From: Amoebophrya sp. A120
Lineage: Eukaryota; Protista; Dinoflagellata
Direction: 5' to 3'
NCBI GenBank assembly: GCA_905178155.1
Contig: CAJINV010000004.1
Span: 4,876,619-4,940,618, forward strand
DNA: 64,000 nucleotides
The stretch's first letter is position 1; each line of letters begins with the position of its first letter. A program made the translations under genes and the position numbers. Below the pieces are notes generated by a model that was given only the letters and a program-made list of their open reading frames with translations, searched no databases and was not told the DNA's origin. Shown piece after piece: positions 39,625-63,733 of the stretch.

Positions 39625-41819
39625 TCACTCCATCCACGTCCACTCCCCACTCAGTTCGAGCTGCAGCCCTTGCACCTCCGCTATGGGGTACTCAAATGTT
39701 ACATTCTCAACTGTTACGCAATCTGTAATACATGAATGGCAAAAGTGAAATGCAAATGGGGGACCTTGCGCGTCTTGCATGACAGATTTGGCAAAGAGTA
39801 TCAGCCTGCTTAGTCCTCTGGGAATTTGTCATGCTAGGCAGCTTGATCGCAATCGCATCGATTCTGATTGTGATTTTGCATGGCAAAGCATGCAACAGTT
39901 GAGAATGTAACAGTTGAGAACGCCATATCTGCGGAGATGCTCAGGGTTGCGGCGTGAAACGTGTCAAAGGTCCGCTGCACGTTGTTGTACTTCTTTTCGG
40001 TCTATGCATCACAAAAGTATCTTCGCACTTGTACTTCATGCATAACAAACCTGGTTCCCCAAATTAGTTTAGCATCACAAACTCCGTTTCAGTTTCTCTT
40101 ACTGGGGAGGTATTCTACCACGCAATTGCTACTAGCGCGATAGTACTTTCGCACAGGATACGATCAAGTCGTCGACAAAACTTCGCACTTCTTCGTCCGC
40201 GACTAGCCTGGCCTGCGACTCGTAAAAGTCCTCCAGGTATCAAGTGCAAACATGTGTAACTCTGAGTCTCAAAACCTCGAATGTGAAATTTGGGCATGAT
40301 GTTGGCTGGAACAACTGTAAGTGTGGCATGTGCAGCAGCAGCCAAGCATCATGACAAGCTTTCAGGCCAATTTCTGCTGCACACTGCGCATTTTTACAGC
40401 TTGCGTTTTCTTTTGCACGGCGAAGCACGCTCCTGCGCTTTTATCGTTGTTCATCAAGCAGTTCAGAATCAGACCTTGCAGAACTGCCAGACAACCAGCA
40501 TGTCAAGCTCCAGTTTCCCAGACTACCTGGCCATCATGTTTGCACTCCATACTTGATCCTCCGACCCGGGACTCGTTCCGTACGTGCCAACCCCGGCGAG
40601 GCCAAACAGATGGTGGCTATGCAATGCAAAAGTATCGTACTAGCATTGCATTACAAATTCCCGCAGCATTACAAATTGAGTTTGTAATGGTGATTTACGT
40701 TGAAAAAGATATTTGTAATGCATAAACGCAATTACTACGAGTGCGATACTTTTGCACAGGATAGTGGCTCTCCCCCGGCGAGTTGTTCAACATCCCACCG
40801 TACTGCAGCAGCGGCGACCCCTTCAGCAACGGTGATTGTTTCAGCAACTTCGTGGTGCCGCTGTTCGGATGGTTGCTGCGCTGCTGTTTCAGGTACTGTT
40901 GCGCTTTCACCGCCCGCGCCTGGATCCGTTCCGGGATGGAGGCGGTTTGAAATTCCTGGTTCGTGTTCAGCGCCGCCTTCCGCCGCAAGTCCTGGGACCG
41001 CTTGCGACTGGGGCTCGGGCTCTGGTGCTGACCACCGATCATGGTGCCAAGAAATTTCGCGGTCGGGCTCGGACTCTGCTCCGCCAGCTCTAGCTGCACG
41101 CCGCAGTAACTCGACTGGTCCCGCTCGACGAGACTCGGGTCTTGCGCCAACAAAATCTGCTCCGCCGGCGTCAAATGTTGATCTTGCTTCGGATTTTTAC
41201 CGTGCTTTCCCTTGCCCTTGTTCAATGCAGTTGTAGAACTAGAACTAGTACTCGCTCCACTGTGCAGCGCCGCCCTTGCAGCTGCTGACGAGCCGTGGTT
41301 CCGCGTGCTTGTCGGATTCGCGCCCGGCTTTTGGTTGTGCACAAAGGCGGACTCCAGATCGGACTGCATCTTCCGAAATTCCTTGTACATTTTCCCGAGG
41401 CTGCGGTCCGGATCGACTTGTCTGGACGAGCTGCTTTTTGATGTACCCTTCGCACTCTGCAGCAAAGAAAGCTTCAGCGACGCGTTCTGTGGCTGGTTAC
41501 CGACAGCACTCCCAGCCGCTGCAGAAGTAGAAGTTGCTCCTCGGGTCGCGAGGAAGTTGCTGGCAGCAGTACTCGAGGATGATGATTTTCCTCCATTTGT
41601 ACTAGACGAAGCGTTACTCAACCCCGTTGCGGAACGCAAAATCGACTTCGTTCCTGGTTTAATACCATCGGGCTGCTGCAACGTGGAGCTTTGTCCACCG
41701 CTTTCCTCACCGGACGTGACGGACTGCTCGTGGGCATGAATCCCCTCCCGGTTGTAGTTGAACAACTCTTGATGAAAGTTGCTGAGTTCCTGGTCAAATC
41801 CTGTGCAAAAGCATCGCAC
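39625..41819 (-). CDS. Hypothetical protein (3' part) interrupted by four TA-TIR elements
   Basis: Sequential removal of element + 5 nt gives one frame: ...PGESH-HLFGL...PGSED-LEDFYESQARL...DDLI-EKKYNNVQRTF...ISA-EVQGLQLEL. Confidence 0.65.
39682..39927. mobile_element. TA-TIR intron element family F (246 bp)
   Basis: TIR built of TTCTCAACTGTTACA units; TSD TCCGC/TCTGC; same ends as 59127-59383. Confidence 0.88.
40003..40160. mobile_element. TA-TIR intron element, diverged family B (158 bp)
   Basis: TATGCATCACAAAAGTAT ... TACTTTCGCACAGGATA; TSD CGGTC/CGATC; frame restored. Confidence 0.8.
40238..40551. mobile_element. TA-TIR intron element, family D-like (314 bp)
   Basis: TATCAAGTGCAAACATG vs rc TATGGAGTGCAAACATG; flanks CCAGG/CTTGA decayed, but the +5 rule restores the frame. 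Confidence 0.75.
40618..40763. mobile_element. TA-TIR intron element family B (146 bp)
   Basis: TSD GTGGC; TATGCAATGCAAAAGTATCGTACTAG ... CGAGTGCGATACTTTTGCACAGGATA; close relative of 61310-61459. Confidence 0.92.
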
Positions 41820-41972
41820 TAAGCGTGTAAAGGTAAACGCTGTTCCTGGATCGATGCCAGCTCTGCTGCTTTTTATTTTTTCACTAGCTTAATCTGCACC
41901 ACAAATTTCATAAGCAAAATTCCTCATCCGAGCATTATTCCAGTACACTTACACGATCTACCATGCAGCTTG

Positions 41973-44900
41973 TTAAGCTTTTGCCATGCATAGATCAGGT
42001 GACACGATGAACGAGGTCCCGCCGGTCCCGGTCTCGCTTATGGATGTGTCAGAGTTGAAATCGACAAATCGACAAAGTTGAAATGATTTGTCATGCTAAA
42101 CCGACCGAAACCACAACACAACCTGTAAGGGCACCTCACCGCAGATGGTTCGGCCACCAGGTCGTGGAGTCAGGCGGACCGAAGCCATCACCATCATCCT
42201 CGGGCACATGATCCCACTTACGCCAACTTTTCCTTACTTTCGCACACAGTCCTCACTTCGCCAACATGCGTTTAGCGTTCGCCAACGATCCTTACTTTGC
42301 GCCAACAAACCATACTTTTCGCCAACAAGTCCAACTTTTCGCCCACTGAGTACGTTTAACGTTCGCCAACGATCCTTACATTGCGCCAACGGATGCGTTT
42401 ATTGTTCGCCAACAAACCTTACTTTTCGCCAACAAACCAACTTATTGCCAACAGAGTACGTTTAACGTTCGCCAACGTACCAACTCATTGCGCTCACGGA
42501 CTGTGCAGGAGCCTACCAGGCAAACTGCTATAAGGAAGCAGCAGCCTGCAGCTGACTCCATGCATACGAAAATTTGCTATTCGGAACCCAACGGCCACCG
42601 CAGGCACAAATACAGTCTGCGATGAGGTTTAGAAAGGTCCGGTAAAATTAGGAGGTGCAGGTCCGGGTTAATGCACCTAACGCCGCGCAGTCAGGTGTCG
42701 CCAGAGAGTATAATCGCCGCAGATATGCTGGGGCTCGGGGCACCAGGAAAAGTTTTGACAGATGAGAGCGGGCCGAGAGAACTGGCAGCCTCAACGGCCT
42801 TTGACGCATTGTATCAGTGTCATGACCAACACAAAATCACAGCAGGACCGCAGAATACAAACGATGCAAAGGCCAGACGCCCCGAGGGCGATAAAGAGGA
42901 AAAGGCGGTCCCGCCAACAAAGGCAAAATATCAGGGACAGCCGAGGCGCTACTACCACCTGTCTCAGTTCATCTGTCAATTGGTAGTTACATAGTGGTGC
43001 CCGCGCGCGTGTAGCCGCAGGTGGCTGAAGGCTCTTGCGCGGATGAATGCAAGCACGAGGACGTCGTGCAGAGAGCAGGGCGCCGCTGAGGCCGGGACGT
43101 AATTGTAGAGAGAGATGCCGCTCTAAGCACAGCGCGTCGTTCTCAGCGGTCGGGTGCCGCGGGTTATCGCACTCGCCATAGCGCCGAGACGTTGACGACC
43201 ATCTGCTAAACGTCGATGGTGTGGTGATGAGACGGGGTTGGAGGCGTGGACAGTCCCCGACTGGCTACGGATCGAGGATGAGCACCATGACGACAGGGAC
43301 AGCGAGCCTCTGCGAGAGTTCGCAGAGATCGGATCGAGTCGAGTGAGTGGGCGCTCCGTCAGGACCGCTCTGTCACGAGATTGACAAAACCTGCGGCACG
43401 CCCCCCCCCGAAGGGCAGGGTTAAGAACCTTCGCCGTGCTTGCCCTGGATCGATCCGCCGGTAGCTGCAGACCCTAGTCCCGGATTATAGCGACGCCCAT
43501 CTTGGACTTTATCTCGTTTGTTTTTGCCCGGGGTGACCAAGCGCTCCGAAAACGAAAGATCGATAGCGAGATGCGAGTTTACGTATGAGCGTGCTGCACC
43601 GGATTGCCGTAGATCTGGATCGAGAAGGAGCTACCGAGTCAAGGACGGAGAGTCGAGCACTCCGAAAACGAGAAACCGAAAATGAGATACGAGCTTTTCT
43701 TTCACGTGAGCGCTCTGCGCAGGCTGTGCTAGTAGGTCAAGATCGAGAAGGACCCACCGCGTCAAGACCGAAGAGTCGAGCTTTCCGAAAAACAAACGAC
43801 CGACGTCGGGCACTCCGGAGACACAGGAGTGCCGTAGATCAGGTTCGAGAAAGAAGTACCGAGAAACCGCAAGCGAGGTCCGAGTTTGTCATGCATGTGA
43901 GCGCTCTGCGCTGAGCTTCCTGCGCGGGACTGCCGAGGATCAAAAACAGTTTGGAACTTCGAGAACTTTTTGAGTCAGAGTGCTAAACCCGCCGCGCTGT
44001 CCACGCGATTATGCCGAAGTCTCCTGTCGAAAAGCGCCAAAGTTACCGACTTCGCTCGGCGGGTTAAGGACAGCATTTGCCACACAGGTCGCAGCCATAC
44101 AGCGTCCTTGCATAAAATGCGATGCAAAAAGTGACTCCATTGCAAAGGACGCAAGGGAGGCAGATTATAGTCCTGGTAAGGGTCAAAAGTTGGACTGCTG
44201 ACTAGCATGACAGAAGGCAGCTCTTTTGCCCTAAACCGCATGACAGACTCGCTTCCAGGACCGGGAAAATTTGTCATGCACCGACTACAAACTGCAGGTC
44301 TAACTGGCATGGGCATCCATTTTATGCATGACAAATTATTTCAACTTTGTCGATTTCAAACCTGACACTCCCATATCGCTTTCCTCCAGCTGAATGCGCA
44401 CCGTCTTCTTTTTACTAGCGGAAGCGCCACCGTTTTGCTCCAGCAGCTGGATTGGTGACAATGGTTGGTCTTTAGAGGAAGTTGTTGGAGAGCCAGTTGA
44501 TTTTCTCGCCATCCAGCTATTGCGCTGCTGCTGCAGGATGGCCTGCAGAACCTGCTCCGCCTCCTCTTGGCGGCGTAGCGAGTCGGGACTCAACTCCGGA
44601 TCGCTGTCAATTGGGATCGCTGCTGTGCCGGCGGTATTGGTCGGATCTGGTGGAGGTTGGAGTTCAAATTTGTCACTTCTACTCCTCTTGTTCATTACAA
44701 ACATACGAAAGATGGCAATGCGATCTTTTATGATGCTGAAAACACTAAACGTAAATCTGAAGCTGCCCACCGACGACGTCCTAGGTGCTGTGCTCGATGA
44801 AAGAACAAACAATACCCGTGGCTCCTGGATAAAAACTCCCCTTCTGTTTCTCCCGTTCCCGTTCCAGGAGTCGCGTCTGCTCCAGGTTGCGCAGGTGCAT

Positions 44901-45266
44901 CGTCAGCTGCAATTTGATTTCGTGCAGGAAGCATTCCAGCTCCCGGTCCCGGTCGTACCACCAGCTGTTAAGCTTCTCCAGCAGCGAGTTCAGCTTGGTC
45001 ACGGGGTTTATTATCGTTGTCGATGGTGTTGAGGAAGTGACGGAGGATCCTGCCAAGCTTCCAGCTTTGAAATACGGGACGAGCCAATGCGGAAGTTGCG
45101 AGGACTTGTCCTTGGTCCGGCAGATCTTGTCGTAGTTGCGGTACAGCCAGTTCCACCCCATGCGGACCTGCTTCTCACTGTGCTTGTAGAGGACAAATTG
45201 GTACACAAAGTTCGGTAGAACCTGAAATTTTAGACTCAGGAGAAGTTCTCTACACCTAAAAACCAT
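41973..45266 (-). CDS. Hypothetical protein (5' part), spanning the 2.3-kb element; may be the same gene as 39625-41819
   Basis: ORFs 45266-44781 and 44812-44376. Element removal gives IQLEES-ETGTGGTSFIVSP. Confidence 0.45.
42220..42483. repeat. CGCCAAC-based tandem repeat inside the long element
   Basis: More than 10 CGCCAAC cores; higher-order unit GTTTA(A/G)CGTTCGCCAACG at ~42270, ~42354 and ~42460. Confidence 0.85.
43540..43960. repeat. Degenerate direct repeats inside the long element
   Basis: Recurring GCCGTAGATC, GATCGAGAAGGA, CGAGAAACCG, GTGAGCGCTCTGCGC and AGTCGAGC blocks. Confidence 0.6.
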
Positions 45267-45588
45267 TATACAAATAAACGTTTCCGGGTTTTGTTCAATT
45301 TTACAAATCAGCGCCCTAATCTACGAGCGAAATCAAATAAACAATCAACCGAGTCAGGCGATGCCTTTTCAGACGAACAAAACCTCAGCGATGCCTCGGA
45401 ATACCCGCCGAAGTATCGCAGATTGATTTTGCAGGAGCTCGCTGGCCTTTCAACAGACAAAACTTGTCTGGCAAGAAATCGGGCAGCTTCTTCGGTTCAT
45501 GGGGCTCGCTTTTTTGTAAAATTCAGACTTAGGATGACAATTTTGGATCCTCTCAGACCCAGACACTTTCGCCTTGATGCTGGTACAC

Positions 45589-45649
45589 GAGAGCCGGAGT
45601 CTAGCTCCTTTTCGAATTCAATTCGCAAAGGAGCTAGACTCCGACTCTC
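45589..45649. repeat. Near-perfect hairpin (30-bp arms, 1-nt loop)
   Basis: GAGAGCCGGAGTCTAGCTCCTTTTCGAATT-C-AATTCGCAAAGGAGCTAGACTCCGACTCTC. Confidence 0.85.
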
Positions 45650-45699
45650 CCAGGTTTTTGGGATTTTCGTGTCATCACATTTCGGCCAAAATGACCGCT

Positions 45700-45890
45700 T
45701 CCGGGTTTGCGCCGGATTTGTCCCGGGTTTGCAAATATTTTGTAAATATTTTGCAAACATTTTGCTATTTCCTGACAGCTAGCGCCGACCTGTAATGGTC
45801 GATATCTTAGCGCCGAAAAAGCACCCGAAAAAGTCGGGCGCTTTGCAAAATATTTGCAAAATATTTTGCAAATCCGAAGCAAACCCGGGA
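45700..45890. repeat. Inverted-repeat block of TTTGCAAAATA-type units
   Basis: TCCCGGGTTTGCAAATATTTTGTAAATATTTTGCAAA ... TTTGCAAAATATTTGCAAAATATTTTGCAAATCCGAAGCAAACCCGGGA. Confidence 0.7.
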
Positions 45891-46204
45891 GCGATCTTGC
45901 GTTCGCTTTCTCGCTCCTCTGTAGCATTCACGCAAAGAATTGGCTTCTATAAATCTGAGCTGTGGAAAGCGCGCAGCACCATCGTGAAACATTTTCAACG
46001 ATGTGCGTTCCACGGGCGCACTGGCACTACGCAGTCGACCTTACTAGTGGTTTGCTGTGGAGGTAGATTCTAAATGAGGACGAGATAGAGCAGAGAAGGG
46101 CGGTCGCTGATGGAGACCCCACCTAACACAAGGGGGATGAAAAGAGGCAGGAAAAGTAGGCCCCCATGGGAAAAAGGTTCCCCCATGCAGTGCAGGAAGG
46201 GCAC

Positions 46205-47458
46205 CTATACTAAGGGGTGCTGAAAAGCATACCTCCTAAGGGCTGTTTTGTGGTGCTTGTGTTTTCTTTCACTTTGTAAAACTGCACAAAACCCGGAAAT
46301 ACAAAGATGCATAATGGTTTTTATAAACGTCCTGAAAACACGACGCAAGAACTTCAAGTTCTTGCGTCGTGTTCTTCTTGGCCATTTATTTTGTACTTGC
46401 TTCATTATCGCCAACAGCATGCATCTTTCTCGTTCTCCTTCTCCATGTAGAACAGTGGATCTTCTAGCTATCAAAAACAATAACAAATTAAATTCTTCTA
46501 CCTCTTCAGAGTGCAGCGTGAATTTCCTTCCCATCGGCAGGTCCTTGATTTGTTCTTGGAGCAACGCTTTTTTGATTTTCTCCGGTAAGTAGGAGAAGAA
46601 GCAGAGCTTGTCCAAAAAATGCGCACAGTGTCGTGGAATCAAATGGTCGTCTGCGCTTTTCGTGGAGGAAGCCATGGGGGACGCGAGGGGAATGGGTTCC
46701 GTACTAGCTAAACCATCTTCATTGCCATCAGCGAGACTGAGATCATCCGGACCTGTAGCACCATCTTCTGTTGCCGCTGCAGCTCTTGATGCTGTGGGAG
46801 CACAAGCAGGGTTCTTGTTCCGTTCCTCCGGTACAACGACCTCAACATCGTCGTTGGCGGATCCGAGCAGTTGTGCCATGATGTCCGCGTCGGAGAGAAA
46901 GTAGAAGTTGCTCTGACTCCGCCGTGCCACTTGGTCGGTGCCGGCGCCTGGGGACTCCTGGTCGTCGACAACTTCTTCAGCGGTATTCTTGCTGATTTTT
47001 CCGTCATCCTCTGCGCCAGCGTCGCCCTGTTCTTGTTGTATACCAACATGACCTCCCGTAGAAGAAGTTATGCCGGTCACTATTGATGCGTTCTCTTTCT
47101 CCTCGTCCGCCGCTGTCAAAGCGTGCATGGCGTCCACGCGCTCTGTTATTCGGTCGAACACCGCACGGATTTTTGGCACCGGATCCCCCTGAAAACCCGT
47201 GGAGGACGCGGACGATTTGCTAGGGCCGCTTGCTCCTGCATTTTTAGCACCATTTCTCTCCTTCTGCTGGTGCTCAAAGCCGGTCGACGCTGTCGTGGGC
47301 GACGTTGCAGCTGGAGCTCCGCCACCACGTGCTGCAACGGCGAGTGCACTGTCGGGGGTCTCGCCTGCTGTGGCGGCTGCTTCAGTCTTCGTGCCTATTT
47401 CGCCCTCGGCACGCTGGAACCGCTCCTCTTCATCCTCAAGCTTGAGCAGGAAATCCAT
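46205..47458 (-). CDS. Hypothetical protein
   Basis: 417-aa ORF; acidic disordered N-half and helical C-half. Confidence 0.5.
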   Translation of the reverse strand: MDFLLKLEDEEERFQRAEGEIGTKTEAAATAGETPDSALAVAARGGGAPAATSPTTASTGFEHQQKERNGAKNAGASGPSKSSASSTGFQGDPVPKIRAVFDRITERVDAMHALTAADEEKENASIVTGITSSTGGHVGIQQEQGDAGAEDDGKISKNTAEEVVDDQESPGAGTDQVARRSQSNFYFLSDADIMAQLLGSANDDVEVVVPEERNKNPACAPTASRAAAATEDGATGPDDLSLADGNEDGLASTEPIPLASPMASSTKSADDHLIPRHCAHFLDKLCFFSYLPEKIKKALLQEQIKDLPMGRKFTLHSEEVEEFNLLLFLIARRSTVLHGEGERERCMLLAIMKQVQNKWPRRTRRKNLKFLRRVFRTFIKTIMHLCISGFCAVLQSERKHKHHKTALRRYAFQHPLV

Positions 47459-48110
47459 TTTGATGTCTACTTTGCAACTTACGGAATTTCCATTTCGTTT
47501 TTCTCGCCCACCAGACTATTTGAAACCCAATGGAGAATCGATCTCCCGGCTCCATTCAACCAATAACTCACACAGATACGGAACTAAATTTTCCACGTCA
47601 GATATTGATGCTGACAACGACTTAGGACACTGAGCTGTCAATTACCTCCTCTGCTTCTCTGTGCTGCTGCTGCTTCTTCTAGATTTGCAAAAGTAGGACA
47701 ACAATCGCACCCTCCTAATACTGTAAAGTGGCGTCTTCGCTCTTCTACTTGTTCTAGCGGGCGCTTACAGCTGCGTTTGCTCTCGTTTTTGTTTTCTTGC
47801 ACAGCGTGCTCCCCACGCAACTCAATCTCAAACTGTACTAGGCCGCCCGCCGCCGCATTTCAACGCGCCGCCGCCTTGCGGCAGCATCTCTGCCCCCTGT
47901 TCGTTCCTACGCGTTGCTGATATGCTGCTAGGCGGCTCGTGAAGGGTCTCACGACGCTAGATTCGTCCGTATCAAAATTTCCTGGCGTGACCACATCCTT
48001 CTGCGCGCATGATGCAGATGGATCTATGATAACGATAAGTTGGTTGTAATTTCTGGTGTTTCTCCACCGACGAAAATGAAACGCGAACGATTTCATCACA
48101 AACTCATGCT

Positions 48111-48973
48111 TCACGATATCCCGGCTGGTCCCGAGAAGTGCATGGGCTCCTTCATGATGACATCGTGGTTTTCGGCGATTAAACGACTTGTATCCACAAG
48201 CGGACGTGATGCTGCACCCGTGCCAAAAATCCCGGATCCTCCTGTCACTGGCGCCACACCGCTCGACGACGACCCACCAACCCTATCGGCAGAAACCGAT
48301 CTTCGTCTGTTCTCGGAAGTTGTGCCGCCACCAACAGGAACAAACCCTGAGGACGCCGCTCCGAGCTGCAGTCGTTGCGTTGCGGTATCTACGGTAGGTG
48401 GATTTGGTTTCTGCGTCAGCCCGTAGAGCAGGGGCAGCTTCGCGTTCGGATTACTGGAGTGGTGTTGTGTTTGCTCGGCCCGTGTCACGTTCGTCACATC
48501 CGCTATTTTCAGTTCGTCTGCCAGAAACCGTCGATCAAACACCCGCTGTTCCGGGTGTCCGCTTTCGGACAGAAACACGGAAAGCGTGTGGTACTGCTGA
48601 TTGTACCTGACAATGTGGGTTGCACTCATGTGAATGCTGTGTATGGCTATGGGAAGAACAAGAAAGTTGAAATACTTCCTGATCGGATCTCAAAAGTACA
48701 AAGAATAAGAAATGCGCATCATCTGCTTTACGCCCTGTCTGCAAGATCAAATGTATCAAGACAAGAACTACAACCGCGATCGCAATACTCCAGGTATTCT
48801 CGTATCAATTCGTTGATCACCAAGTTTGCGGAGGGAATGGCAGGTCGCTTCGCGCTCTTTTCGTCCAGCGAATGAAAAATTTCAGACTGCACTTTTGCCT
48901 TCAATTCGTCCAGGATACCCTTGCGCTCCAGGCTCTCCACAAGAGCCTCCTTCAGCTCGAGAAGGGACGCCAT
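48111..48973 (-). CDS. CEP20: Centrosomal/basal-body LisH protein FOR20 (FOPNL/CEP20)
   Basis: ELKEALVESLERKGILDELKAKVQSEIFHSL, NLVINELIREYLEYN, HTLSVFLSESG and LPLLYGL; GT-AG intron 48788..48607. Confidence 0.85.
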
Positions 48974-50043
48974 AGTTTTCCTTTTCTTTAGATTTCGGTT
49001 TGTTTTGTAGTTGGTGCTTGATGAACTTGTCCTCGCACTCAACTAGGAAAAATTCATTTGCAACAACCCACCGGACTCGAGTTCATCTCACCCAGCGACC
49101 ACGTTTTGGTATCGTACCTGCGCACAACATCAACCTCAAGCTATCTCACTTTCGTTCAGCTGTCGTACTGTGCGGTAAAGTTGTACTCCTCAATGGAAGA
49201 GTATCGCGCTTTCTTTGCTGCCGAAGAACAGCAACACGGAGCCAACCAGCACTACCTTGGACAATCATGGTTTTGTCAACCACAACCTTCCTCGAGATTG
49301 CCCTTTGCAGTTCGTTTCTTGTGGTCACGCGACACGCTTTTTTATCTTTTTGTGGGAGTGCTCTGCGACTGCCACGCAGGCACATTCCTCCGTGCATCGA
49401 GGCTTCCTAATGTGGAAATCGATTTGCTGCAACAAATTTCCACGCGGTCAACAGCAGCGAGAGGACTATTCTTTTACGTGTGAAACTTGACAAGCGTCTC
49501 AACATTTAAACATGGAGTCTATCTTCATTTTTGATACAAAAACGCTGAATCAAATCGGGTCACGCTGAGACTCTTGCTTCATTTCAAACTCAGAGGTGAT
49601 ACCACGTCCACATAGTGAAAAGCAAAAAACGCGTACAGAGGCTTTACTTTCTTTTGATGGTAGTCCTCGACTCAAATAGCACAGCACTCGAGTTCTTTTC
49701 CGAGAAAAGCTGGCATCTTTCTGTTGCGACAGAAGCATCAGAAGAAGCCGCTATGATGAAATTGCAAAACCTACCTCTAGAAGTTTGGCCCAGATGTGTT
49801 CTGTAGCCATCGTCGTGTTCAAAAATCGTAAGAAGATATGATAGGGTAAAGTAATCGCTTAGATGCGGAATTTAGTGTACATACTGAAAATTATGCGTTC
49901 TTCTAAAGAGTGTGCAAGAATCTAAAATTTTTCCGATTTTTAGGTGGTAGATCTAGGAATAGAAACACCACTTGTGGTTGTCCTCTCCAGTTGCTTTATT
50001 TTCGACGACCAGCCCCTTTCGGACCTCCGCCTCCATGTTCCTC

Positions 50044-53196
<3,153 letters not shown>

Positions 53197-53854
53197 GTTT
53201 TTTCTTGTGCGGCCAATGAATGAACTTTGACTTTATTCAGTTTGATGGTTTACAACACTCTAAAATAAACAAATGCCTTCTGCGCAGGCAGGTCTTACTC
53301 GTATGACAGTAATTCAATTAAATGCGTACTTATGCAGGAGGAAACTCCGGGCGAGCTGCTTCTTTAAAAAAAACGAGCAAGAAAGCACGACTTTTCTGAG
53401 CCAGGATCAGAAGAAGAATGACTACACCCTGGCGGCATCAGAACCACGAGTGAACAAGTGGCCGTGAAGATGACACAGACACACGCGTCGGTGTGACGCG
53501 TTTACAAGGCGATCCAAGCAAGTCGTGGGCCAGAATGCTCAATGAGTTGTTTCTTGGAACCGGACGAAATCTAAAGAATGGGTCGTGTTCAAATCATACA
53601 AAGATATGTCGACAGCAAGTAAGTTCGCTGTATTCTACGTCGAATGAGCGCGACTCAAAATTCGTCGCGATATTTTCCATTTGCTTGTGCCTTTGAAGCC
53701 GTCGAATGAGCGCGATTTTCGCGTGATTAAACAAAAATACGGCTTTCAACCTAGCATATAATTCAAGAACTCGTAATAGAACTCGCTAAGGAAAAATGTC
53801 GTTGCCATACTCAACGAAAGAGCTTCGTCAAACTAAAGTATCTTCTCTGTCACT

Positions 53855-55594
53855 TCACCTCCTTCTGTCTCTTCCTTTGCCTTTCCCCTTACCACCTTTG
53901 CCACCGGATCCTTTGCGCTCCGCTGTGCGCGTCGCCTCCGCTTCGTTGATGAAGAACAGTTGCGGTTCAATGCGCAGCAACACGCGGAGAGTCTCACCGT
54001 CCTCGCCGCCAGTACGACTGTGAGGGGTTGTGACTAGAAACTCACTCATCATCCCGTAGGGAGTTTCTTTCCAGGTCAGATCTGGGTGAAGTTCGCGCAG
54101 GATGAGTTTGTAGATTTCGCACACGTCCGTCGGCTCCTCGCTGCAGTACGCCCTCTTGCGAATGCATTTCGGGCAGTACTCGGGCAAGTGCTGGCCGTGT
54201 GGATGGTGGTCCCAAAACACCTCCGCCTTGATTGCTTCCACCGGTTCCTCGCATTTCCTGCAAATCTGCTTCGGCTTTTCCGTTTCGCTCACGTTTGCCC
54301 ACTGCTTCCACCGGGAGGCGGACGACGAGTTTTGATGTTCCGTACTGCAGTACCACAGCGTGTGCAGGCACCCGCACTTCTTTTTGCGGTCCCGATCACA
54401 CCCACATGTGCTGATATTGTCATCGTCATCATAGGTCGGGTCTTCATCTTCGTTTTCACTTTCGACCGACGTGGCGTCACGTAGATTCAAACGACGCACA
54501 CTGTTGATCAAATCGCGGTCCTCCTCGTTTTCGTAGTCCGTCGCCAATTTCGGATTCCAGTACCCACCGTAGCACTTCACGGTGTCCCAGCGGTATACCG
54601 CATCCCGACCGGGGCCACCTTCCTCGGACTCAGCCACACCGCAATCGCATTCGAATTCGGCGTACAATCGGTATTCCCGGAAATTCACGAGCTCGGGAGG
54701 ATCCCGTGTTTCTGCTAGCTGACACAGGAATGCACTTCGGCGTACCGGAACAAGCGGCGGCTGGAGCAAAGGATCTGCTCCGCCAGCAGAGACTGGGGGC
54801 GAGGACGGACCTGCACCTGCCATAAAATCCTGTACGTCCCTGCTCTGCAGGCCGTTTCCAAACAGCTTCGAAATCAACACCTTGTGCTTGATAAGCGACT
54901 CCGCACAGTCTCGGTTTAGCAGTTCGTTCGGCGGAAGGCTAAATACACGAAGTTCTTGCTGCAAATCGACGGTTGGCAGGTCAACCACATCATTGCCGCC
55001 GGGGTAGTGCAGAGCGCTGGGGCTGGCGTCGAACACGCATACCTCCACGATGTTCTTGGATTTGCCAGTGATGTAGCCCGGAATTTCCAGGGGCGGCTCC
55101 TTCGCAGCAGATTTGTGGCCGCGCATGCGCCGGTGCAGCCGGCTGACCTCCGCCCGTCGCAGCCTTTCCTTTTGACTTGCAGCTCCAGCGCTGTCGTCGT
55201 CCGCAACCCGGCGAATTTCACCGAGGACCCTGTCCGATTCGTATCCGCCGCCTCCACGAAGGGGCTTGCGCATCTGCAGCGCCCCGTTGCTCAATCCGAC
55301 GCCGCTATTGTCAATCACGAGATTAGCAACGTAGTCGTTTTTGCCGCATTTTTCCAGCAAAACGTGCGTCGTCTCGGCGTTGGCGGGATCGGCGCGCACT
55401 TGCAAAACCCTGTAAGTGGCCGGGTGGCGGCTTCTATCCGCGTCCCACAACACTTGGATTTTTTCGGCTGCGCGTGGAATAAAGGATGCCATATTGCTTG
55501 CTGTCGTGATTATGAAGACCGCGACGGTCGTAACTCTGACCTCCCGTGCCCGTCTGATAATGATATGAATGTCAATGTATTGAATGACAGACAA
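53855..55594 (-). CDS. Hypothetical protein with Cys/His-rich C-terminal region
   Basis: 579-aa intronless ORF; CGC, CGCLH, CRKC and CPKC clusters (possible Zn binding). Confidence 0.55.
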   Translation of the reverse strand: MSVIQYIDIHIIIRRAREVRVTTVAVFIITTASNMASFIPRAAEKIQVLWDADRSRHPATYRVLQVRADPANAETTHVLLEKCGKNDYVANLVIDNSGVGLSNGALQMRKPLRGGGGYESDRVLGEIRRVADDDSAGAASQKERLRRAEVSRLHRRMRGHKSAAKEPPLEIPGYITGKSKNIVEVCVFDASPSALHYPGGNDVVDLPTVDLQQELRVFSLPPNELLNRDCAESLIKHKVLISKLFGNGLQSRDVQDFMAGAGPSSPPVSAGGADPLLQPPLVPVRRSAFLCQLAETRDPPELVNFREYRLYAEFECDCGVAESEEGGPGRDAVYRWDTVKCYGGYWNPKLATDYENEEDRDLINSVRRLNLRDATSVESENEDEDPTYDDDDNISTCGCDRDRKKKCGCLHTLWYCSTEHQNSSSASRWKQWANVSETEKPKQICRKCEEPVEAIKAEVFWDHHPHGQHLPEYCPKCIRKRAYCSEEPTDVCEIYKLILRELHPDLTWKETPYGMMSEFLVTTPHSRTGGEDGETLRVLLRIEPQLFFINEAEATRTAERKGSGGKGGKGKGKGRDRRR

Positions 55595-56575
55595 CAGAAA
55601 TGATTACAGTAAAATTTAGCCGATACATACCAACATTTGTACGCAGAAAAAGAGTTCTGCGACTCTAACTCTTGTAAAAAGCGGTGCTCGTGCTGATATG
55701 TTGCCCCGTTTGTTCCACCACATCTAACTGCGCACACTCGTCTTAAATTCTGCTTACGTATTCTTATACTTGTTGACCACCTGCCACTGCCTCTTGATCT
55801 GGAATAATGTCTACACGAACCACTCCAACTCGAACTTAAAATGGAACGAAAGATCATCACAGGTTGCGCCCAACATGAATCCTGATCATGCCGATGTTGA
55901 CGAAGTTATTGCGTACCTATGTAATATTACTTAACGAGATCTCTATCTTTTCGACATTCACGACATTGCTTGCCAGAAAATACTTTCGAAGAAAAGACTT
56001 CTTCCGCCCCCACAGCCAATGTAACAAATTGCATATCTTCACTTTGTTCAAACCCTTCTACATTGTAAATCATCTCGTCCACATAGTAGTTCATCATTCA
56101 CGGACGGTCTTGTCGTTATCATATACATACGATGCACAAGAACATCACATCATTTACTTTAGTACTAGCAGGTAGTGCTGCCTGCATACGAATTAGTTTT
56201 TCTTGTTTGAGCTTAGAATAAACCTAGTGTTAGCGACACTGACAAAGAGTTTGATCAGAAAAATAAGAATTATGATACATCAGATACAAACAGAAACAAT
56301 CTCACGTTTCGAAGATGCTGATACTGATAGATACATACTGAAGCAGATAAATCTGTAGTTGTACTAGCATGGCGACAAGCGGCACTATCGGACCGACCAT
56401 TCAAGTAGTAGAATTCTAATGCGTTTTCCAACCTAAAAACTAAGTTAATATTCAAATTCTCGTGCGTATTTGTAAAATATACCGCTGCAAGAAATCTCAA
56501 ATCAGTGCGATGGATTTTTCCGTTCTTGCGTCACGTGCTACGTGACGCAAGTGGTGATAAAGTTAAATGCAAAAC

Positions 56576-59500
56576 TTACTTCTGTACTATAGTCTCCTCC
56601 ACTTCTTGTTGTGCCTCCACCTTCCTGTTTTTCGGTTTTATTGAGAGGAAAAATCCCCCCTCCCCATATCGAAAAGGTATGTTTGCAAAAATTTGTGTTG
56701 CGGATTTGAGGTCACAAATCACATTTGTCTTGCAAGAAGGCAAACCCAAAGAATCCGCTGCCTTAAGGAGGCGATTTGTAATGCTGTTTCACCTACATGG
56801 CAGGCCTCTCTTATGCCAAGAGCCTACAACAAAACACCCCTACGCAGGCTGAGGCTTTGCCTGTAGTGCCTCTGTGCAATACAAAGCTGATTTGTGGTCA
56901 CAAATCAGCATCACAAATTTCCGTTCTGATATGGGGAGGGGGGATTTTTCATTCTGATAGGTTTTGCGGCCACAACATAGCGAAACCCCTGGTCGCCGAG
57001 GAACACCGTGTGGAACACGGCCGCTGTTCCCGGTACGACGAACATCAGGACTGTAAATACCTGCCCTATCCAAGTGAAGAACATACAACTCCCCGCCCTC
57101 GTGGTCGTCCCTCTCGTTCTTGGTTTGTCATGATACAAAATGCGGCCTAATATTCTTTACGCATTGCGTTGCCTCTTGGCACTGTTTGCATGACAAGATC
57201 TAGCAGGAGCAGCTCGGACTACGACTACAGCAGGTACTACACTCCTGTCCAGTAGATTTCTTCTCGTCATGGTGCAAAGCCTGTATTTTTGCAGCTGTCG
57301 CGTACTGTACTAGTACAACTTAGTGTTATATTTTATTTTTAATTGCTGTTCATACAATAGTACAAATGAAGGGGAACATCAAGGGGAGCTGTAATTTTTG
57401 CACTTTCATATGCCCCCAGACGGCGACATTGAGCAGAGTCGAGAGGGAAAGCACGACGGTCGAGAGGCATGTCAGTTTGCGAAATGCGCACGCGGTGAAA
57501 GTAGGACTTTCATTTTTGAGGCCGCTGGTGTTGTGCTCCACTTCTTCTTTGTGTTCTCGCAACTGGTTTTTTTCGTCCTGCTGTTCCGCCTCCGAAGCGG
57601 AAGAAGCGCTGGTGGAAGGAAGCATCGTGCTCCGATTGTCGTAGAAGTCCTTGGCCGCCGCGAGCTGCTCTCCGACGTACGGCGCAGCGCCGGCCGGAGA
57701 TGCAGGCGGCAGCGCGAGGAGGACAGGAGGCCCTGCGAGTACCGGGTTGTGGTGCCGATCCAGTACGATCCGCGTCTCCATGTGGTCGACGAACTCGAGC
57801 TCAACACCGCCGCAGCAGAACAAATAGCCCCATGGATGACCGGAGAAACTAGCACACGATGACGATGAGTGTTCTACTTCATCTTCCCCAGCATCAGCTC
57901 GCTCTGTTCCGCCTCGCTGCTCTACTGCTGTACTACGTCGATCTTGTCCCATCATGTTCTTGCCGCTCGATTTATTACTTTCCACATTGTTGTTCTTCCC
58001 GGTGGTTGACGCGCTGGTGCCGACGTTATCAGCGACTTCTTTCGTCTGTTGTAGTTCTTCTCCCGCCGCCGATTTTAAAATTCCCTGGTGCAGCTGCTTT
58101 TGTTCTAGTTGCCAGACAGGAAAGGCTTTGCCCTCTTTCGTATTTTTCAACGCGTACACGAGCAAGGACACGTAGCACATGGTGATGAGGACAAAGGTGA
58201 AACCCAACGCAAGCGAAGTAATCGTACCAAGTGCAAAAGTATCGTACTCGTAGTAATTGCTATCGTGCATGACAAATATCTCTTTTTAGGTGAAATAGCA
58301 CTACGAGTTGCATTTTTGTTCTTGAAAAAATTTGTGATGCAATTTATACTAGTACGATACTTTTGCAATGCATAAAGCGGCAACACTTGCAACAACAGCG
58401 GCAGACCGCAAGTGTGAAGAAACGCGACGGCGCCGGGAACCATGCCCATCAGAATGCACAGGCCGAGGAGCATGTCCATAACCAGCCTGTCCCACGCGAT
58501 TCGAATCAGGAGCAGGTGGGTGAGGACAGAAGTCTTGAACAGTTGCCAGCTGCTGGTCGTCGATGAAACAACACCCGGTGGTCGCACGGTGGGCGACTTT
58601 CTGGACGTCGAGGACAGCAACATGCGAAGTTGCCACCCCGCTAATCGTAGCTGGTTCAGGACCAAAAAGCTCACTTCCCCGATGCCCTGCAGGTGCCGCC
58701 GCGATTGCGTGTACCGTGCCGCTACGTTCGCAAAGTACGCACTCATCCGGGAGGACGAAGTAGATCCTTCGCTCTCCACGATAAAACTAGCAAACGGTAG
58801 GTAAATCGCGACGACTTTGAAGGCCGGCAGGGGAAACCGCAACATTGTGGGATCGTTATTGTAGCAGAGAGCTGCAGATGTTGAGGAGGAAGAAGCTACA
58901 ACTCCTGCGGAAGCTGCAACAGGAGCACGACGTCCACCTGGCGCAGGGGCACCAACAACTCCTCCGCAATGCTGTATGAGGGCGGAGGATTCATCTTGTT
59001 CATCAGGGTTGTTCACCAGATGATGATCCACCTGATGTTGGTGCTCATGATCTTCAGGATCGCCAGGAGCTTCTACTTCGAGCGACGTAGACGTATGTAG
59101 CCCCTGGAGGTTCCACAGTTCGCGGGTATGGCACTCTCAAACGTTACATTCTCAGCTGTTTTTACACGATTAGACGTGCAAAATGACCATGAGCCACCAG
59201 ACGAAGATCAAGCTGCTTCGCGTGACAAATTATCAAAGGGCCAAACAGTATCTAAATCCTCTGTGCCAAATTTATATATGATGCAAGCTCATTTCTTGCA
59301 AGCTTGCCCCTTTCATCCGTACTGCTCCTTTAGCGTCACAAATCCACGTAACAGTTGAGAATGTAACAATTGAGAACGCCATAGCGGGTGAGCATGCCTT
59401 GCAGAAAAGTGTGGAGGTCCTCGGAGATGACGTCGGGAGCAAAGCCGCCCATCCGCTCGACAAGTCGATGCGTCGCGGTGTAGGATATGAAAGCCTCACC

Positions 59501-62500
59501 AGGTTGGAAATCCTCAAAGTGGAAATAATTTGTAATGCAAAAAACGACTCCAGGTAAAGCGGCATTTGTAGTCCGCGCATGACAAATTTCCCGGGCACTT
59601 CTTAAAGCATGTCTGTCATGCAGGTTAAGGCAAGGGGGTGCCCTTCTGTCGTGCTAAGCAGCACTCCAATTCTTCACCCCTGGCAGGACAATAGTCGGCC
59701 TCCGTTGCGTCCTCTGCAATACAGTCTTTTTTGCGTCGCATTTCATGCATCACAAATCATTTCCACTTTGAGGATTTCCATTGTTCTGAGGCTTTCATAT
59801 AGGAGCTCATCAGCGGTCGAGCGGAGGGGGAGACCAGACCGAGCTTGTAGCGCTCGTACATCCTATCACAGGAAAAAGTGTTAACGTTAACGGTTTTCAC
59901 AGATTGCAGTCATGCATCACAAATGTAGCCCAATATGCATGCTATGCATGACAAATTCTGACACGTCTTGTGATGCATTTCAGCATCACAAATTCCGTTA
60001 ACGTTAACACTTTTTGTTGTGATACATCCAAGCGCCTGCCGCGCCGACCTTGCTCAAGCCGGGGACGCGGTCCCAGTTGCGCAGCGGCTCCTGCACCGCT
60101 TGCCAAAACCTCCACGCACGGTCTGAGGCCGGCTCCTGCAGTGCCTGAAACGTCACGCAGGGAAAGTACTGCCGATGAAACAGCGTGTCAGCGTCGCAGT
60201 TGGTAATGAAAGTGCGGTCCGGGTGCCACCGCAGTAAGCTACAAGAACTTGTTGGAGAAGTTTGTTCGTTTTCAGCTGCACCAGGACCGGATGATGGTGC
60301 TCCATCGCTTCCATACGTGGAGGAGACGCTGTTCGTTATTTTTGTTCTAATTGTATTACTCCAAGTTGTTCGATGCCAATGTTGATTAAATTTCTCTCTC
60401 TCTTTATTTCCGCTGCAGCAACTTTTGTTCAGTACAAGCTAATCATTGTTCTCAAGAACATCAACAAGCAGTAGGGAACGCCTGCTTGTCGTGCAGCTTT
60501 TTGTTAGAAATAGATACTCGATCATGAAGCTATCCACGCTTTCATCGCGCATAAAATAAAATCATCGAAGCATCTAACTATTATCATTTCATTTCAAACA
60601 GATTCCAATTAGTACCTGCTGCCATTGTTCAAGTTCATCATGGTCCTCGTCTTCCCAAACTGCCCCTTCTCCTCACGACCGGGCAGCAGCTTTTCACATT
60701 GCGTTGGATCGTTCAGAAAACGCTGCAGTTCTAGCCACGCTGCCTGCAATATGACAGTGCACAACTCCCCCTTCCCCCCATTTGTGATGCAAAGCCTTGG
60801 TCCGGTCCCATGTGGCACTGTTTGCATGACAACTTTCGGAAGCCCAAACAGTACTACATTCGGCTCGTGAAGAACTTGTCATGCATAGGATCCAAATGCG
60901 TTGATGTTTGTATTGCTGCTCATGCCATGCAAGTGAGGGGGAGGGGGACTTGTGCACTCTCATATGCACATTTGAACTCTTGCCGGCCACCTCGCCGGGA
61001 AATTGGTTCTCTTTGTGGTAGCTGAGAATAATCTTCGCGAACTGGTGGCCGTGTCTGCCTTTTAGCCTTTCCGCTTTTTCGACTGCAGCCGGGCCTTCGC
61101 GCTCCTCCATGGCCAGCACGAGCACCATGGGGAGAGCTACAACTGGATGGTGTAGTGCTTCGATTTGGTGGTCATCGTCGCATGGGAGCTGCTGGCTTTC
61201 GTTTTCATCTTGTTGTTCCGGATTTTTTTCTTGTAGTTTCTTGCTCATCGTCCCGGCGGTGAAGTGATTTTTGTCCAGGTCCTCGCTCATCTGCTGACTC
61301 TTGATGTCGTATGCAATGCAAAAGCATCGTACTAGTATGAATTGCATTACAAATTGGCTTCGCATTACAAATTGAGTTTGTAATGCGGATTTGCCCTAAC
61401 AAAAAGATTTGTAATGCATAAATGCCATTAGTACGAGTACGATACTTTTGCAGTTCATATGTCGTGCTTCAACACCAAGTTGTTAATCGTGTCGGATACT
61501 AGGTCGCAGTCTTCCTTGTAACAGGGGATGATCACCGCATGCAGCGTATGCAATACAAATTTCCCGTACATGTACAAGATGCATCACAAATTTCACGAAT
61601 TTTGAGCGTCAAACTTGTCATGCGAAACTAGAAGCGAAGCCAAGTTTTGTCATGCGGAGACCGCATTTGATGTACGTGTACGGGAAATTTACTGTGGATA
61701 CAGCAGTCCGTCTTGCAATGCCTTCCTCTCTTTGCTGGAGTGCACAAATTCTCCCAGTTTGCGTTCCCATATGACACCCTCAGAATGGAAATCCTCAAAG
61801 CGGAAATAATTTGTGATGCATGAAATGCGACACCAAGAAGACCGTATTGCAGAGAACGCAATGGAGGCCGACTATTGTGCTTCTATGGGTTCAGAATTGG
61901 ACTGCTGATTAGCATGAGAGAAGGGCACCCCTTTGCCTAACTAGCACGACACCAGACACGTTCTGAATGACCGGGAAATTTGTCATGCGCCGCTTAGAAA
62001 TGGCGCTTCAACTGGAGTCGTTTTTTTGCATTACAAATTATTTCGATTTCCACTTTGAGGATTTCCATTCTGAGGCTGTCATATCCCAGTCGACTTTCAG
62101 CCACGCGTCCATCTTATCAAATGCAATTATGTCTGTGTCTGGAAGGTTGCAACTTGTGATGCTATGTTTCGACTCTAAAAAGATTTGTATTGCATGACCA
62201 GCAAGGGGAGCCCAGTTTTTGCTACGTGGGGAGGGCATTTGTCATGCGGAGCAGGCATCAGGAAGCCTTCTAAAAATCTGTGATGCTATGTCCCGCATTC
62301 CAGACCTCATGGGTCATGGCAACCCTGCGTGACAAACTTGTATTCTTCCAGACCCAGACATATTTGCATTTGATACATCTTCCACAAGCACATCGCCGCG
62401 CCAACAGAAATATCAAATGCAAAAATGTCTGGGTCTGGAAGATTCGGGGAGTTTGTCATGCACAACTGTACATGACCCAAAATGCCTGTGATGCATGCTG

Positions 62501-63733
62501 TAGCATCACAGTTCTCGCAAAGCCTTGGTAATGCCTATTCTGCATGAGAAATGCCCTCTCCGAGTGGCAAAAATTCAAGCAGCTTTTGCTGCTCATGCAA
62601 TACAGATTTTTCTATCGTCTACAGGTAGCATCACAAATCCCATTCTTTCCAGACCCAGACATTTTTGCAATCCATACGTGATCGTCGAAAGCATAAAGAC
62701 CACAAAGAACTGACAGGGTAAAATGGCATACTCGAACCACAACCGGGGAAACGCGTCGAATTGGTAGGTGAGGAGGTGTATCAAGTGTAAAAATGTTTGG
62801 GTCTGGAAGAGTGCAGACTTGTCATGCACATTTTCCATGACCCATGAGGTCTGGAGTGCGGGACCTAGCACGACACATTCTGTGAGGCCTCTACCATGCC
62901 TATCCTGCATGAGAAACCGCCTCCCAACTTGGTCAAAAGTGAACAGCTTTTGGCACTCATGCAACACAGATTTTTGCATGCTTCAGATTTACCATGACAA
63001 GTTGCCACCTTCCAGACCCAGACATTTTTGCAATGCATAAGGTAGATGCCGAGGTAGGTCAACACGAAGATCAAATACACGCAGAGCGGAACGGTCCGGG
63101 TATCAAATGCAAATGTGTCTGGGTCTGGAAACTTGTGATGCTGGGTGGCGTATCATGAGGAGGCAACAAGTGCTGGTGCAGCATGACAAGTTTCAGAGCT
63201 TCCAGGTGTTGCCTATTCAGCATGACAAACCACGTTTCTGCATGGCAGAAAAGTGAGGCTCTTGGGTAACGTGCATGACAGATTTAAGAGTCATGCCAGA
63301 CAAGCATGACAAACATGCATTCTGCCAGACCCAGACATTTTTGCAGTTGATACCGGGCAAGCAATGCCAACGTCGTTCCGGAGGAGACGGATTGGGGAGA
63401 GAGAAGTTCTTGTCCTTGATGTAGCTGTGGTTGGTGACCAACTGCATGATGTTGAGCGTGGTCATAGTACTCAACATGTTGCTTGAGCTTGCTCTCCTGC
63501 ACCACGCCTGCAGTTGATGTACTACTTTGTGGGGGCGTGGACGTCGCATAGAAGTCCGCCTTCGACGTTGTGCCCTGGCTGCGACGCCGGAGGTCCACCT
63601 TCGACGTTGTGCCCTGTTTCATCTTCTGTTGGGATGGTCGTGAAGAACTTTGCAGCTGCCAGAAGTGCGTCGACGTATTTTCAATGCGACTGCGAGGACG
63701 AGCGGTAGGAACTACGGCAGGCACAGGGCGCAA
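56576..63733 (-). CDS. Membrane glycosyltransferase family 2 protein, split by 14 TA-TIR elements and one GT-AG intron
   Basis: Reconstructed frame contains HAVIIPCYKED, LAMEERE, PGEVAGKSSN, TNCDADT (DxD), VISEDLH (catalytic ED), ARYTQSRRH (QxxRW-like), TM helices at both ends and YVVAAKP near the C-terminus. Start uncertain. Confidence 0.85.
56639..56959. mobile_element. TA-TIR intron element (321 bp)
   Basis: TSD GGTTT; TIR core GAAAAATCCCCCCTCCCCATATC; restores VAAKP-KNRKVE. Confidence 0.92.
57067..57410. mobile_element. TA-TIR intron element, family H-like (344 bp)
   Basis: TSD TGCCC; shares TGGCACTGTTTGCATGACAA with 60750-60964; restores AVWGQ-VFTVLM. Confidence 0.85.
58225..58374. mobile_element. 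TA-TIR intron element family B, reverse orientation (150 bp)
   Basis: TGCAAAAGTATCGTACT TIR; TSD AATCG/AAGCG; restores QVLP(L/I)-TSLALG. Confidence 0.9.
59127..59383. mobile_element. TA-TIR intron element family F (257 bp)
   Basis: TSD GCGGG; restores GMLTR-ELWNLQ. Confidence 0.92.
59486..59799. mobile_element. TA-TIR intron element family C (314 bp), reverse orientation
   Basis: TSD TAGGA; TIR core TGGAAATCCTCAAAGTGGAAAT; restores LMSSY-TATHRL. Confidence 0.93.
59864..60024. mobile_element. TA-TIR intron element family G (161 bp)
   Basis: TSD CATCC; TIR TATCACAxxAAAAAGTGTTAACGTTAACGG; restores GAWM-YERYK. Confidence 0.93.
60750..60964. mobile_element. TA-TIR intron element family H (215 bp)
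   Basis: TSD TGCAA/TGCAC; TIR TATGAxAGTGCACAAxTCCCCCT; restores GKSSNVQ-AAWLEL. Confidence 0.92.
61310..61459. mobile_element. TA-TIR intron element family B (150 bp)
   Basis: TSD TGTCG; restores VLKHD-IKSQQ. Confidence 0.93.
61547..61700. mobile_element. TA-TIR intron element family A (154 bp)
   Basis: TSD CAGCG/CAGCA; homolog of 34239-34389; restores DGLL-HAVIIPCYKE. Confidence 0.92.
61770..62083. mobile_element. TA-TIR intron element family C (314 bp)
   Basis: TSD TCCCA; restores KVDWE-RKLGEF. Confidence 0.93.
62115..62375. mobile_element. TA-TIR intron element family D (261 bp)
   Basis: TSD CATCT; TIR TATCAAATGCAAxTATGTCTGxGTCTGGAAG; restores CLWKM-DAWLK. Confidence 0.93.
62411..62676. 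mobile_element. TA-TIR intron element family D (266 bp), TSD decayed
   Basis: Clear family D TIRs; flanks AGAAA/CGTGA; the +5 rule restores MLSTI(S/T)VGAAM. Confidence 0.88.
62779..63039. mobile_element. TA-TIR intron element family D (261 bp), opposite orientation to 62115-62375
   Basis: TSD AGGTG/AGGTA; restores LGIYL-LTYQF. Confidence 0.92.
63101..63352. mobile_element. TA-TIR intron element family D (252 bp)
   Basis: TSD CCGGG; restores LLAR-TVPLCV. Confidence 0.93.

Follow-up and report, generated by a model that had tools for sequence, protein, structure and literature searches.

How can copies of one inserted element that lie in opposite orientations, within genes that are read in one direction, all be removed from the transcript? 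The question arises in a 64,000-nucleotide stretch of the dinoflagellate Amoebophrya sp. A120 (contig CAJINV010000004.1, positions 4,876,619 to 4,940,618 of the forward strand; hereafter the window), where an earlier note made from the letters alone had seen element families interrupting minus-strand genes both ways round and had proposed that removal is independent of orientation, through recognition of a symmetric structure in RNA or DNA. Exons of three window genes match letter for letter the proteins P0001 (a papain-family protease), P0018, and P0019 (a metacaspase), whose source is named as Amoebophrya sp. A120. Judged by their ends, the elements are the introner elements published for this organism (PMC7789003), which have ends of TAT, seven less-conserved nucleotides (nt), and at least three As, direct repeats of 3–5 nt, repeated families, and non-canonical borders, and for which a hairpin was proposed; their splicing mechanism is stated there to be unknown, and the Fig. 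3 legend calls the intron border unknown. Statements on published work, here and below, concern the cited passages of each source. Our analysis directly supports removal independent of element orientation, as copies of families B, C, and D lying either way round are skipped in assembled transcripts. The host transcript and the elements that bear on this result are the following.

56034–63892, minus strand: host transcript of 16 exons and 4082 nt with an open frame of 1127 amino acids; the two junctions below 58000 are placed from contig piece lengths.
60329–60615, minus strand: canonical GT-AG intron in the same gene; its 287-nt skip establishes the strand and identifies the contigs as spliced transcript.
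40618–40763: family B, orientation 1, direct repeat GTGGC; element plus 5 nt removed in the annotated A120 protein P0018 (protein basis, no RNA joint).
50239–50392: family B, orientation 2, direct repeat TCCAG, in the papain-family protease gene; removed in P0001 (protein basis, no RNA joint).
58225–58374: family B, orientation 2, flanks AATCG/AAGCG; skip of 58220–58374 in 4/4 runs, cut offset 0–2.
61310–61459: family B, orientation 1, direct repeat TGTCG; 155-nt skip in 4/4 runs.
59486–59799: family C, orientation 1, direct repeat TAGGA; 319-nt skip in 4/4 runs.
61770–62083: family C, orientation 2, direct repeat TCCCA; 319-nt skip in 4/4 runs.
62115–62375: family D, orientation 2, direct repeat CATCT; 266-nt skip in 4/4 runs.
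62411–62676: family D, orientation 1, decayed repeat AGAAA/CGTGA; 271-nt skip in 4/4 runs with 1 nt of ambiguity, cut offset 1–2; the most informative junction.
62779–63039: family D, orientation 1, flanks AGGTG/AGGTA; 266-nt skip in 4/4 runs.
63101–63352: D-related element of a separate subfamily, direct repeat CCGGG; 257-nt skip in 4/4 runs.
59127–59383: family E, reversed relative to 39682–39927; 262-nt skip.
59864–60024: element with the same end type; 166-nt skip.
60750–60964: element with the same end type; 220-nt skip.
61547–61700: family F, oriented as 34239–34389; 159-nt skip.
56639–56959 and 57067–57410: elements of the same host transcript; junctions placed from contig piece lengths.

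Alignment of family members with their reverse complements, a check the earlier note had proposed, finds interiors that are not palindromic; orientation is therefore assignable, and the objection that palindromic interiors would preclude assignment is excluded. An inverted-end scan recovers all eight elements named in that note as TAT...ATA units with 5-nt flanking direct repeats at their expected starts, and the motifs quoted there are present, for family C at 59539 with the reverse complement at 62012 and for family D at 62299 with the reverse complement at 62835. With arms trimmed, the family C pair 59486/61770 scores 193 reversed versus 16 in the same orientation (shuffle maximum 23), while in family D 62115 scores 87 reversed versus 21 same with 62779 and 102 versus 22 with 62411 (shuffle maxima 23–27 over C and D), so the reversals claimed for both families hold. 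Pairwise orientation is weaker in family B because the interior is partly self-complementary in 40618 and 61310 (scores of 33–39); arm-trimmed profiles built solely from another assembly bear out the arrangement described, with 40618 and 61310 lying one way (15.6 forward and 56.6 reverse bits, and 15.6 and 61.1 bits, respectively) and 50239 and 58225 reversed (61.4 and 12.8 bits, and 47.6 and 0 bits). Further D copies, besides those first noted, occur at 62411 and 63101, and 39682 and 59127 form a fourth reversed pair (interior 49 reversed versus 17 same). The element at 40003 was considered as a reversed B copy and rejected; by profile it orients weakly like 58225.

The host genes lie on the minus strand wherever this was tested, as had been claimed, although for the genes near 17246 and 23970 the support for that strand is weak. 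The evidence consists of the GT-AG intron at 60329–60615, the frame of 1127 amino acids, and the proteins P0001, P0018, and P0019; in addition, all eight Pfam-matching frames among the 36 scanned are on the minus strand, with 35 of the 36 scanned frames being minus-strand. Pfam gives no match for the five host-gene exons at 57353–63618 or for the P0018 exons.

Removal was read from RNA-type contigs of four runs (two samples, one study; the RNA type is guessed) aligned at 100% identity to positions 58000–63500. These hold 13 joints, each found in 4/4 runs, of which 12 correspond to elements, every one skipped as element plus 5 nt, and one to the minus-strand GT-AG intron. Skipping occurs both ways round in families B (58225, 61310), C (59486, 61770), and D (62115 versus 62411 and 62779), and splicing is thus not confined to one orientation. 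The joined exons amount to 4082 nt, equal to the contig span, and contain the minus-strand frame of 1127 amino acids, which each insert would shorten if retained. Nine of the 13 joints are flagged "between: not known"; the record coordinates there leave exactly small exons of 57, 204, and 56 nt. We take the contigs as spliced RNA because the GT-AG intron is skipped and because RNA-type run X1 has zero depth in one intronic and one intergenic bin, where the depth of DNA-type run X5 is about 50.

Such skips could also arise as reverse-transcriptase jumps over hairpins flanked by direct repeats, as a hairpin with a short direct repeat is a described artefact substrate (PMC8240250, PMC2923612) and all RNA evidence here is presumably based on complementary DNA (cDNA). 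We judge this the least probable of the explanations weighed here, because element 62411, whose repeat has only 2 of its 5 bases left, is removed in an unchanged register in all four runs, because one gene would bear 14 frame-shortening insertions, and because the protease needs exact removal to match its relatives P0002 and P0003. Alternatively, the elements could be excised from DNA in a programmed or transient manner, with transcripts made from cleaned templates. This would suit the transposon anatomy and the single duplication copy left behind, as after precise excision, and the DNA-type joints considered are 15 of 1444 rows, so that rare empty sites are possible. DNA excision is nonetheless very unlikely because X5 contigs run into elements 50239, 58225, 59127, and 61310 at a depth of 39–47, like unique sequence, because the element-skipping contigs also skip the GT-AG intron and do not cover the intronic and intergenic bins, and because the constraints described below follow gene direction. 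The window sequence may itself derive from X5. Where the earlier note left recognition to RNA or DNA, removal lies at the RNA level as far as these data go, the DNA-type contigs keeping the elements.

Protein evidence extends the observation to 40618, removed in P0018, and to 50239, removed in P0001, with the relatives P0002 and P0003 running through the protease site; the annotation is possibly not independent of the runs. The X1 contig piece at the protease gene ends at 50233, and the raw RNA runs X8 and X9 match repeat copies only and no exons. Depth within elements was not read as a retention rate, as the bins there also count contigs from other copies. On 61770–61883, run X8 contributes hundreds of raw RNA reads that derive from another copy of family C; their element part breaks off within the element, at an apparent cDNA adaptor, and is followed by a different flank. 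These reads are possibly unspliced or half-processed RNA, or one amplified molecule.

Is the two-way arrangement general? From one other, related assembly, 160 loci (L001–L160; 485,561 bases including overlaps) were fetched by an end pattern fitting either family D arm, at least 160 loci being available. They hold families B to I, with up to 92% identity to window copies, and 353 distinct elements were detected in them; an earlier version of the detector found none in 181,517 shuffled bases versus 132 in the same real loci. Host strand was called by a codon model for 267 of the 353 elements, leaving 86 uncalled. Calls agree in 57 of the 58 loci with several of them, and the same model applied to the window, with its genes left out, places 21 of 26 elements above a 6-bit margin, all on the minus strand. 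Interior-only clustering is consistent on every edge (4180/4180 in the largest group). The sense versus antisense count that the earlier note had asked for comes to approximately 50:50 over 250 oriented, strand-called copies: 100 have the minor orientation of their family, compared to 103.8 expected at 50:50 (95% range 94–112). Relative to the gene, family B splits 19:15, family D 35:49, the D-related subfamily 26:20, and C-like elements 4:2, and both orientations occur within one locus in 26 of 44 locus-family groups. Removing element plus 5 nt opens 60 codons on each side at 145 of 269 sites, versus 81–89 for plus 3, 4, 6, or 7 nt; splicing in these loci is predicted from sequence alone.

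The position of the cut can be resolved at junctions where the two repeat copies differ. There the intron begins 1–2 nt before the first arm and ends 4–3 nt after the second. The offset before the first arm is 1–2 at 62411 and 0–2 at 58225 (both from RNA), 1–2 at 50893 (from protein, through a conserved methionine), and 0–2 at 40003 and 40238 (from protein). An offset of exactly 1 was considered and rejected, as the junction at 40238 is synonymous at offset 2. Removal of the element together with 5 nt restores the original reading frame, and the rule corrects gene models. The element at 62411 retains 2 of 5 repeat bases and is spliced in the same register in all four runs; an intact direct repeat is therefore not needed. 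Further elements considered here are the following.

50893–51139: protease-gene element with a partly decayed direct repeat; cut offset 1–2, given a required methionine common to P0001–P0003.
40003–40160: B-related element in the P0018 gene; offset 0–2 (protein).
40238–40551: D-related element with a decayed direct repeat in the P0018 gene; offset 0–2 (protein).
41797–41992: P0018-gene element with a terminal base altered at the transcript-3' end.
42039–44375: C-type 2.3-kilobase (kb) element, direct repeat TCGCT.

What signals the cut was asked of 290 strand-called elements (267 from the loci and 23 from the window). Their inverted ends conform to TAT-N7-AAA, with TAT at 279/290 and 274/290 ends and A at positions 11–13 in 87–94%; families C, E, and G retain TAT but lack the full AAA. 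The 5-nt direct repeat is exact in 273 of the 353 elements, detection favoring a length of 5. AG is not enriched at the intron 3' end (24/290 at offset 1 or 17/290 at offset 2, versus 20 expected), and GT..AG ends occur in only 10/290 or 2/290, respectively, so these are not introns with a U2-type GT/GC donor and AG acceptor. The end dinucleotides are of 15 or more kinds at near-background rates, and the first intron base is free. Two weak signals are common to copies of either orientation. The first T is present at 290/290 transcript-5' ends, while the mirror A is missing from 9/290 3' ends (p 0.004); and a purine occupies position 5 of the duplication in 185/290 (p 0.0045 versus flanks). Role-specific conservation yields no branch-point candidate, nor does any arm position besides the first differ by role. 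Polarity of the interior relative to the transcript is absent, whereas the unequal cut offsets and the weak end signals follow gene direction. Since nothing in the interior marks direction, a fixed branch point or pyrimidine tract would not be a requirement within it.

Orientation-independent removal therefore stands, with B, C, and D skipped both ways in all four runs and an even split in the second assembly. The symmetric structure to which it had been attributed is borne out only in part: the symmetric ends are the likely reason, but the cut is asymmetric, the weak signals go with gene direction, and the test for RNA-pairing selection came out negative. Folding predicts paired arms on either strand, with a mean pairing of at least 0.7 at arm positions 8–14 in 12 of 14 folded elements (no shuffle control); predicted pairing is weak for 61547 and 50239, and the outermost three pairs are weak (0.12–0.34) in four of the 14, three of which are spliced exactly. 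Interior substitutions show no strand bias. The arms change approximately half as often as the interiors, which transposase recognition alone would explain. Given the negative test for base-pairing selection, what is read may be a hairpin or a symmetric sequence signal.

It is conceivable, though improbable, that what the machine reads is the sequence of the ends or a protein bound to them (such as a domesticated transposase on a subterminal motif) rather than a hairpin, the symmetry being that of a motif at both ends. Arm positions 4–7 often mismatch while TAT and AAA are kept, G-U mismatches are as common as A-C mismatches, and the elements (window plus L001–L160) share an internal motif, GCA-W-B-ACAAA or its mirror, with 504 occurrences in 86 kb of element sequence versus one in 16 kb of window coding sequence; it may be a site for a transposase or a splicing factor. 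However, for young elements with long stems the G-U test is of low power, and families are removed alike although their arms differ beyond TAT, as would be expected if structure is read. This alternative concerns what is read and not who cuts, and to that extent it overlaps the mechanism proposed next.

We propose that these are small, non-coding, DNA-transposon-like introners, exonic either way, that are removed to the base by a modified spliceosome measuring from their inverted ends, a reading to which we give an even chance. A transposase would insert the element facing either way at random and duplicate 5 target nt; in either case, the transcript would then carry TAT-N7-AAA at the start of the insert and the mirror at its end, as is observed in both orientations. 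Element plus 5 nt would be removed from 1–2 nt before the first arm to 4–3 nt after the second, as seen at the informative junctions, restoring the frame and requiring neither AG nor an intact direct repeat. Paired or protein-bound arms would replace recognition by U1 and of the AG acceptor, and the spliceosome core would supply direction. At offset 1 the intron would start N-T-A-T, in register with the GTA-type donors of the organism; canonical introns in the window begin mostly with GTA. We infer both the recognition of inverted ends in RNA and the identity of the machine, and rank the modified spliceosome first because this lineage retains the spliceosome core, because GT-AG introns occur alongside the elements in their host genes, and because TAT lines up with the local GTA donors at offset 1. 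In A120, nearly all spliceosome proteins and U2, U4, U5, and U6 are present, while U1 was not detected (PMC7789003 section 10).

Several points weigh against a modified spliceosome measuring from inverted ends. The RNA evidence consists of assembled contigs from two samples of a single study, of guessed RNA type, and the informative junctions represent one orientation per family, so the base-level offset covers that orientation only. Reading the first T as a donor "U at +2" is weakened because cut offsets of 1 and 2 both fit; the first-T asymmetry is moreover post hoc, concerning one of 26 positions, amounts within families to 0/238 versus 7/238 (p 0.015 uncorrected), and includes among the nine lost-mirror-A cases one (L006) that seems to be a false element. 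G-U and A-C mismatches in the arms number 324 and 316 on the transcribed strand, leaving no trace of selection for RNA pairing, and a stem of 25–35 base pairs over both splice sites would be expected to block ordinary spliceosome pairing.

A second candidate is a dedicated non-spliceosomal RNA machine, a structure-reading nuclease plus ligase as proposed for the nonconventional introns of Euglena, that would read the terminal hairpin, cut at fixed spacers, and join the exons. We regard it as serious but less probable. The predicted pairing of the arms on either strand, the lack of AG enrichment, the free first intron base, and the U1 not found in A120 (PMC7789003) would all suit it, and the Euglena rule N3-CDG...CH'G-N5-6|R (PMC12501133) is similar in shape: its 3' spacer exceeds its short 5' spacer, and a purine follows the cut. 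Here, position 5 of the duplication is rich in purines. On the other hand, the arms show no G-U excess, the outermost pairs are weak in elements that are spliced exactly, the lineage retains a spliceosome, its genes with elements also contain GT-AG introns, and the same repeats are reported for 15% of canonical A120 introns (PMC7789003). Somewhat more tentatively, a second, spliceosome-independent RNA repair pathway might remove any insert bounded by transposon inverted ends, in any orientation or site, by means of a ruler; if so, it would be a general antidote of the organism to its own DNA transposons, letting them fill exons. The removal of tens of thousands of non-canonical introns without detectable U1 in Amoebophrya, an open question (PMC7789003), is narrowed by the constraints found here: no AG comes from the target site, removal does not depend on the direct repeat, and the cut position is probably set from the inverted ends. 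The elements would spread freely in exons because every insertion, either way round, is repaired.

Other observations in the window concern individual elements and genes. The element at 42039–44375 has family C ends and family C interior at its right end, with approximately 2 kb of other sequence inside and short tandem repeats near 42213–42480; P0018 removes it but keeps 15 nt beyond the element-plus-5 rule, giving AT..AC ends, which is either a real feature or an annotation artefact. P0018 reads into the family E element at 39682–39927 and stops, probably a gene-model error. A 124-nt element at 34921–35044 starts with TAC, has an exact 5-nt repeat, and is removed in the metacaspase P0019, and is absent from the detector output; an apparent repeat-less element at 34945–35020 was rejected as the inside of this one. 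The element-like stretches at 18180–18527, 22419–22754, and 25896–26038 have decayed ends or lack a matching direct repeat. A long GT-AG intron at 45222–46501 contains a 1.1-kb insert with 51-nt inverted repeats (45257–45307 and 46273–46323) and a fragment resembling a family D end near 45531–45572. On the minus strand at 29924–33131, a thioredoxin-domain frame adjoins a pyridine nucleotide-disulphide oxidoreductase frame. Positions 1–304 hold a 47–49 nt tandem repeat followed by an inverted copy, and 28000–29000 and 36500–38500 are GC-rich (60–66%) stretches to which no gene is assigned. Rfam, which includes group I and II introns, gives no match in the window at gathering score.

How do these elements compare with known systems? 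The element class is already known, while orientation-blind removal and the cut rule appear to be unreported. In the text of PMC7789003 and its supplement, PMC12130899, PMC11282704, and PMC11453091, with figures and subscription literature outside this scope, we found no statement on the orientation of Amoebophrya elements; in the cited parts of PMC7789003, "orientation" is used for genes only, "strand" and "reverse" do not occur in the supplement text, and no fixed element-plus-5 rule is given. The elements themselves are no different from the A120 introner elements of that paper, sharing organism, TAT-N7-AAA ends, 3–5 nt repeats, families, and non-canonical ends. A survey counts 58 A120 families, some of them DNA elements with terminal inverted repeats and mostly with non-canonical ends (PMC12130899); its filter requires the same orientation, while the methods of PMC9860276 allow for introner copies in opposite orientation.

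As to the element mobilizer, the TA..TA termini of IS3EU/GingerRoot elements, TAY..RTA in fungal families (PMC10045372, PMC12730594), resemble the TAT found here, of which TAC is the commonest variant, but the duplication there is usually 6 bp, compared to 5 nt in 12/12 RNA junctions here. No transposase was found, the one frame scanned in the 2.3-kb element having no Pfam match; the resemblance is a possible lead. Introners of Micromonas and Aureococcus likewise have inverted ends and target duplications and are reported to insert in both orientations (review PMC10228655); they carry or co-opt splice sites and orientation biases are reported, whereas the A120 elements need neither AG nor GT and show no bias.

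The non-canonical introns of Fritillaria are also transposon-derived, with terminal inverted repeats and a target duplication, and are removed by an adapted spliceosome (PMC11282704, PMC13326754), but they have preferred AG-AC/AG-AT ends and a target motif, in contrast to the at least 15 end dinucleotides at near-background rates here. The nonconventional introns of Euglena similarly lack GT-AG and have paired ends, fixed unequal spacers, a purine after the 3' cut, and a proposed origin from miniature inverted-repeat transposable elements (PMC12501133, PMC11282704); "orientation" and "reverse" are absent from the main text of PMC12501133. Excised circles are reported for them (PMC12501133, PMC11282704), and among the 13 listed joints here there is no back-joint, contigs being unable to show the absence of circles. 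They differ in belonging to an unrelated lineage and in having a CAG/CTG motif at +4–6 and −8 to −6 with spacers of 3 and 5–6 nt, compared to TAT/ATA with spacers of 1–2 and 4–3 nt in the A120 elements.

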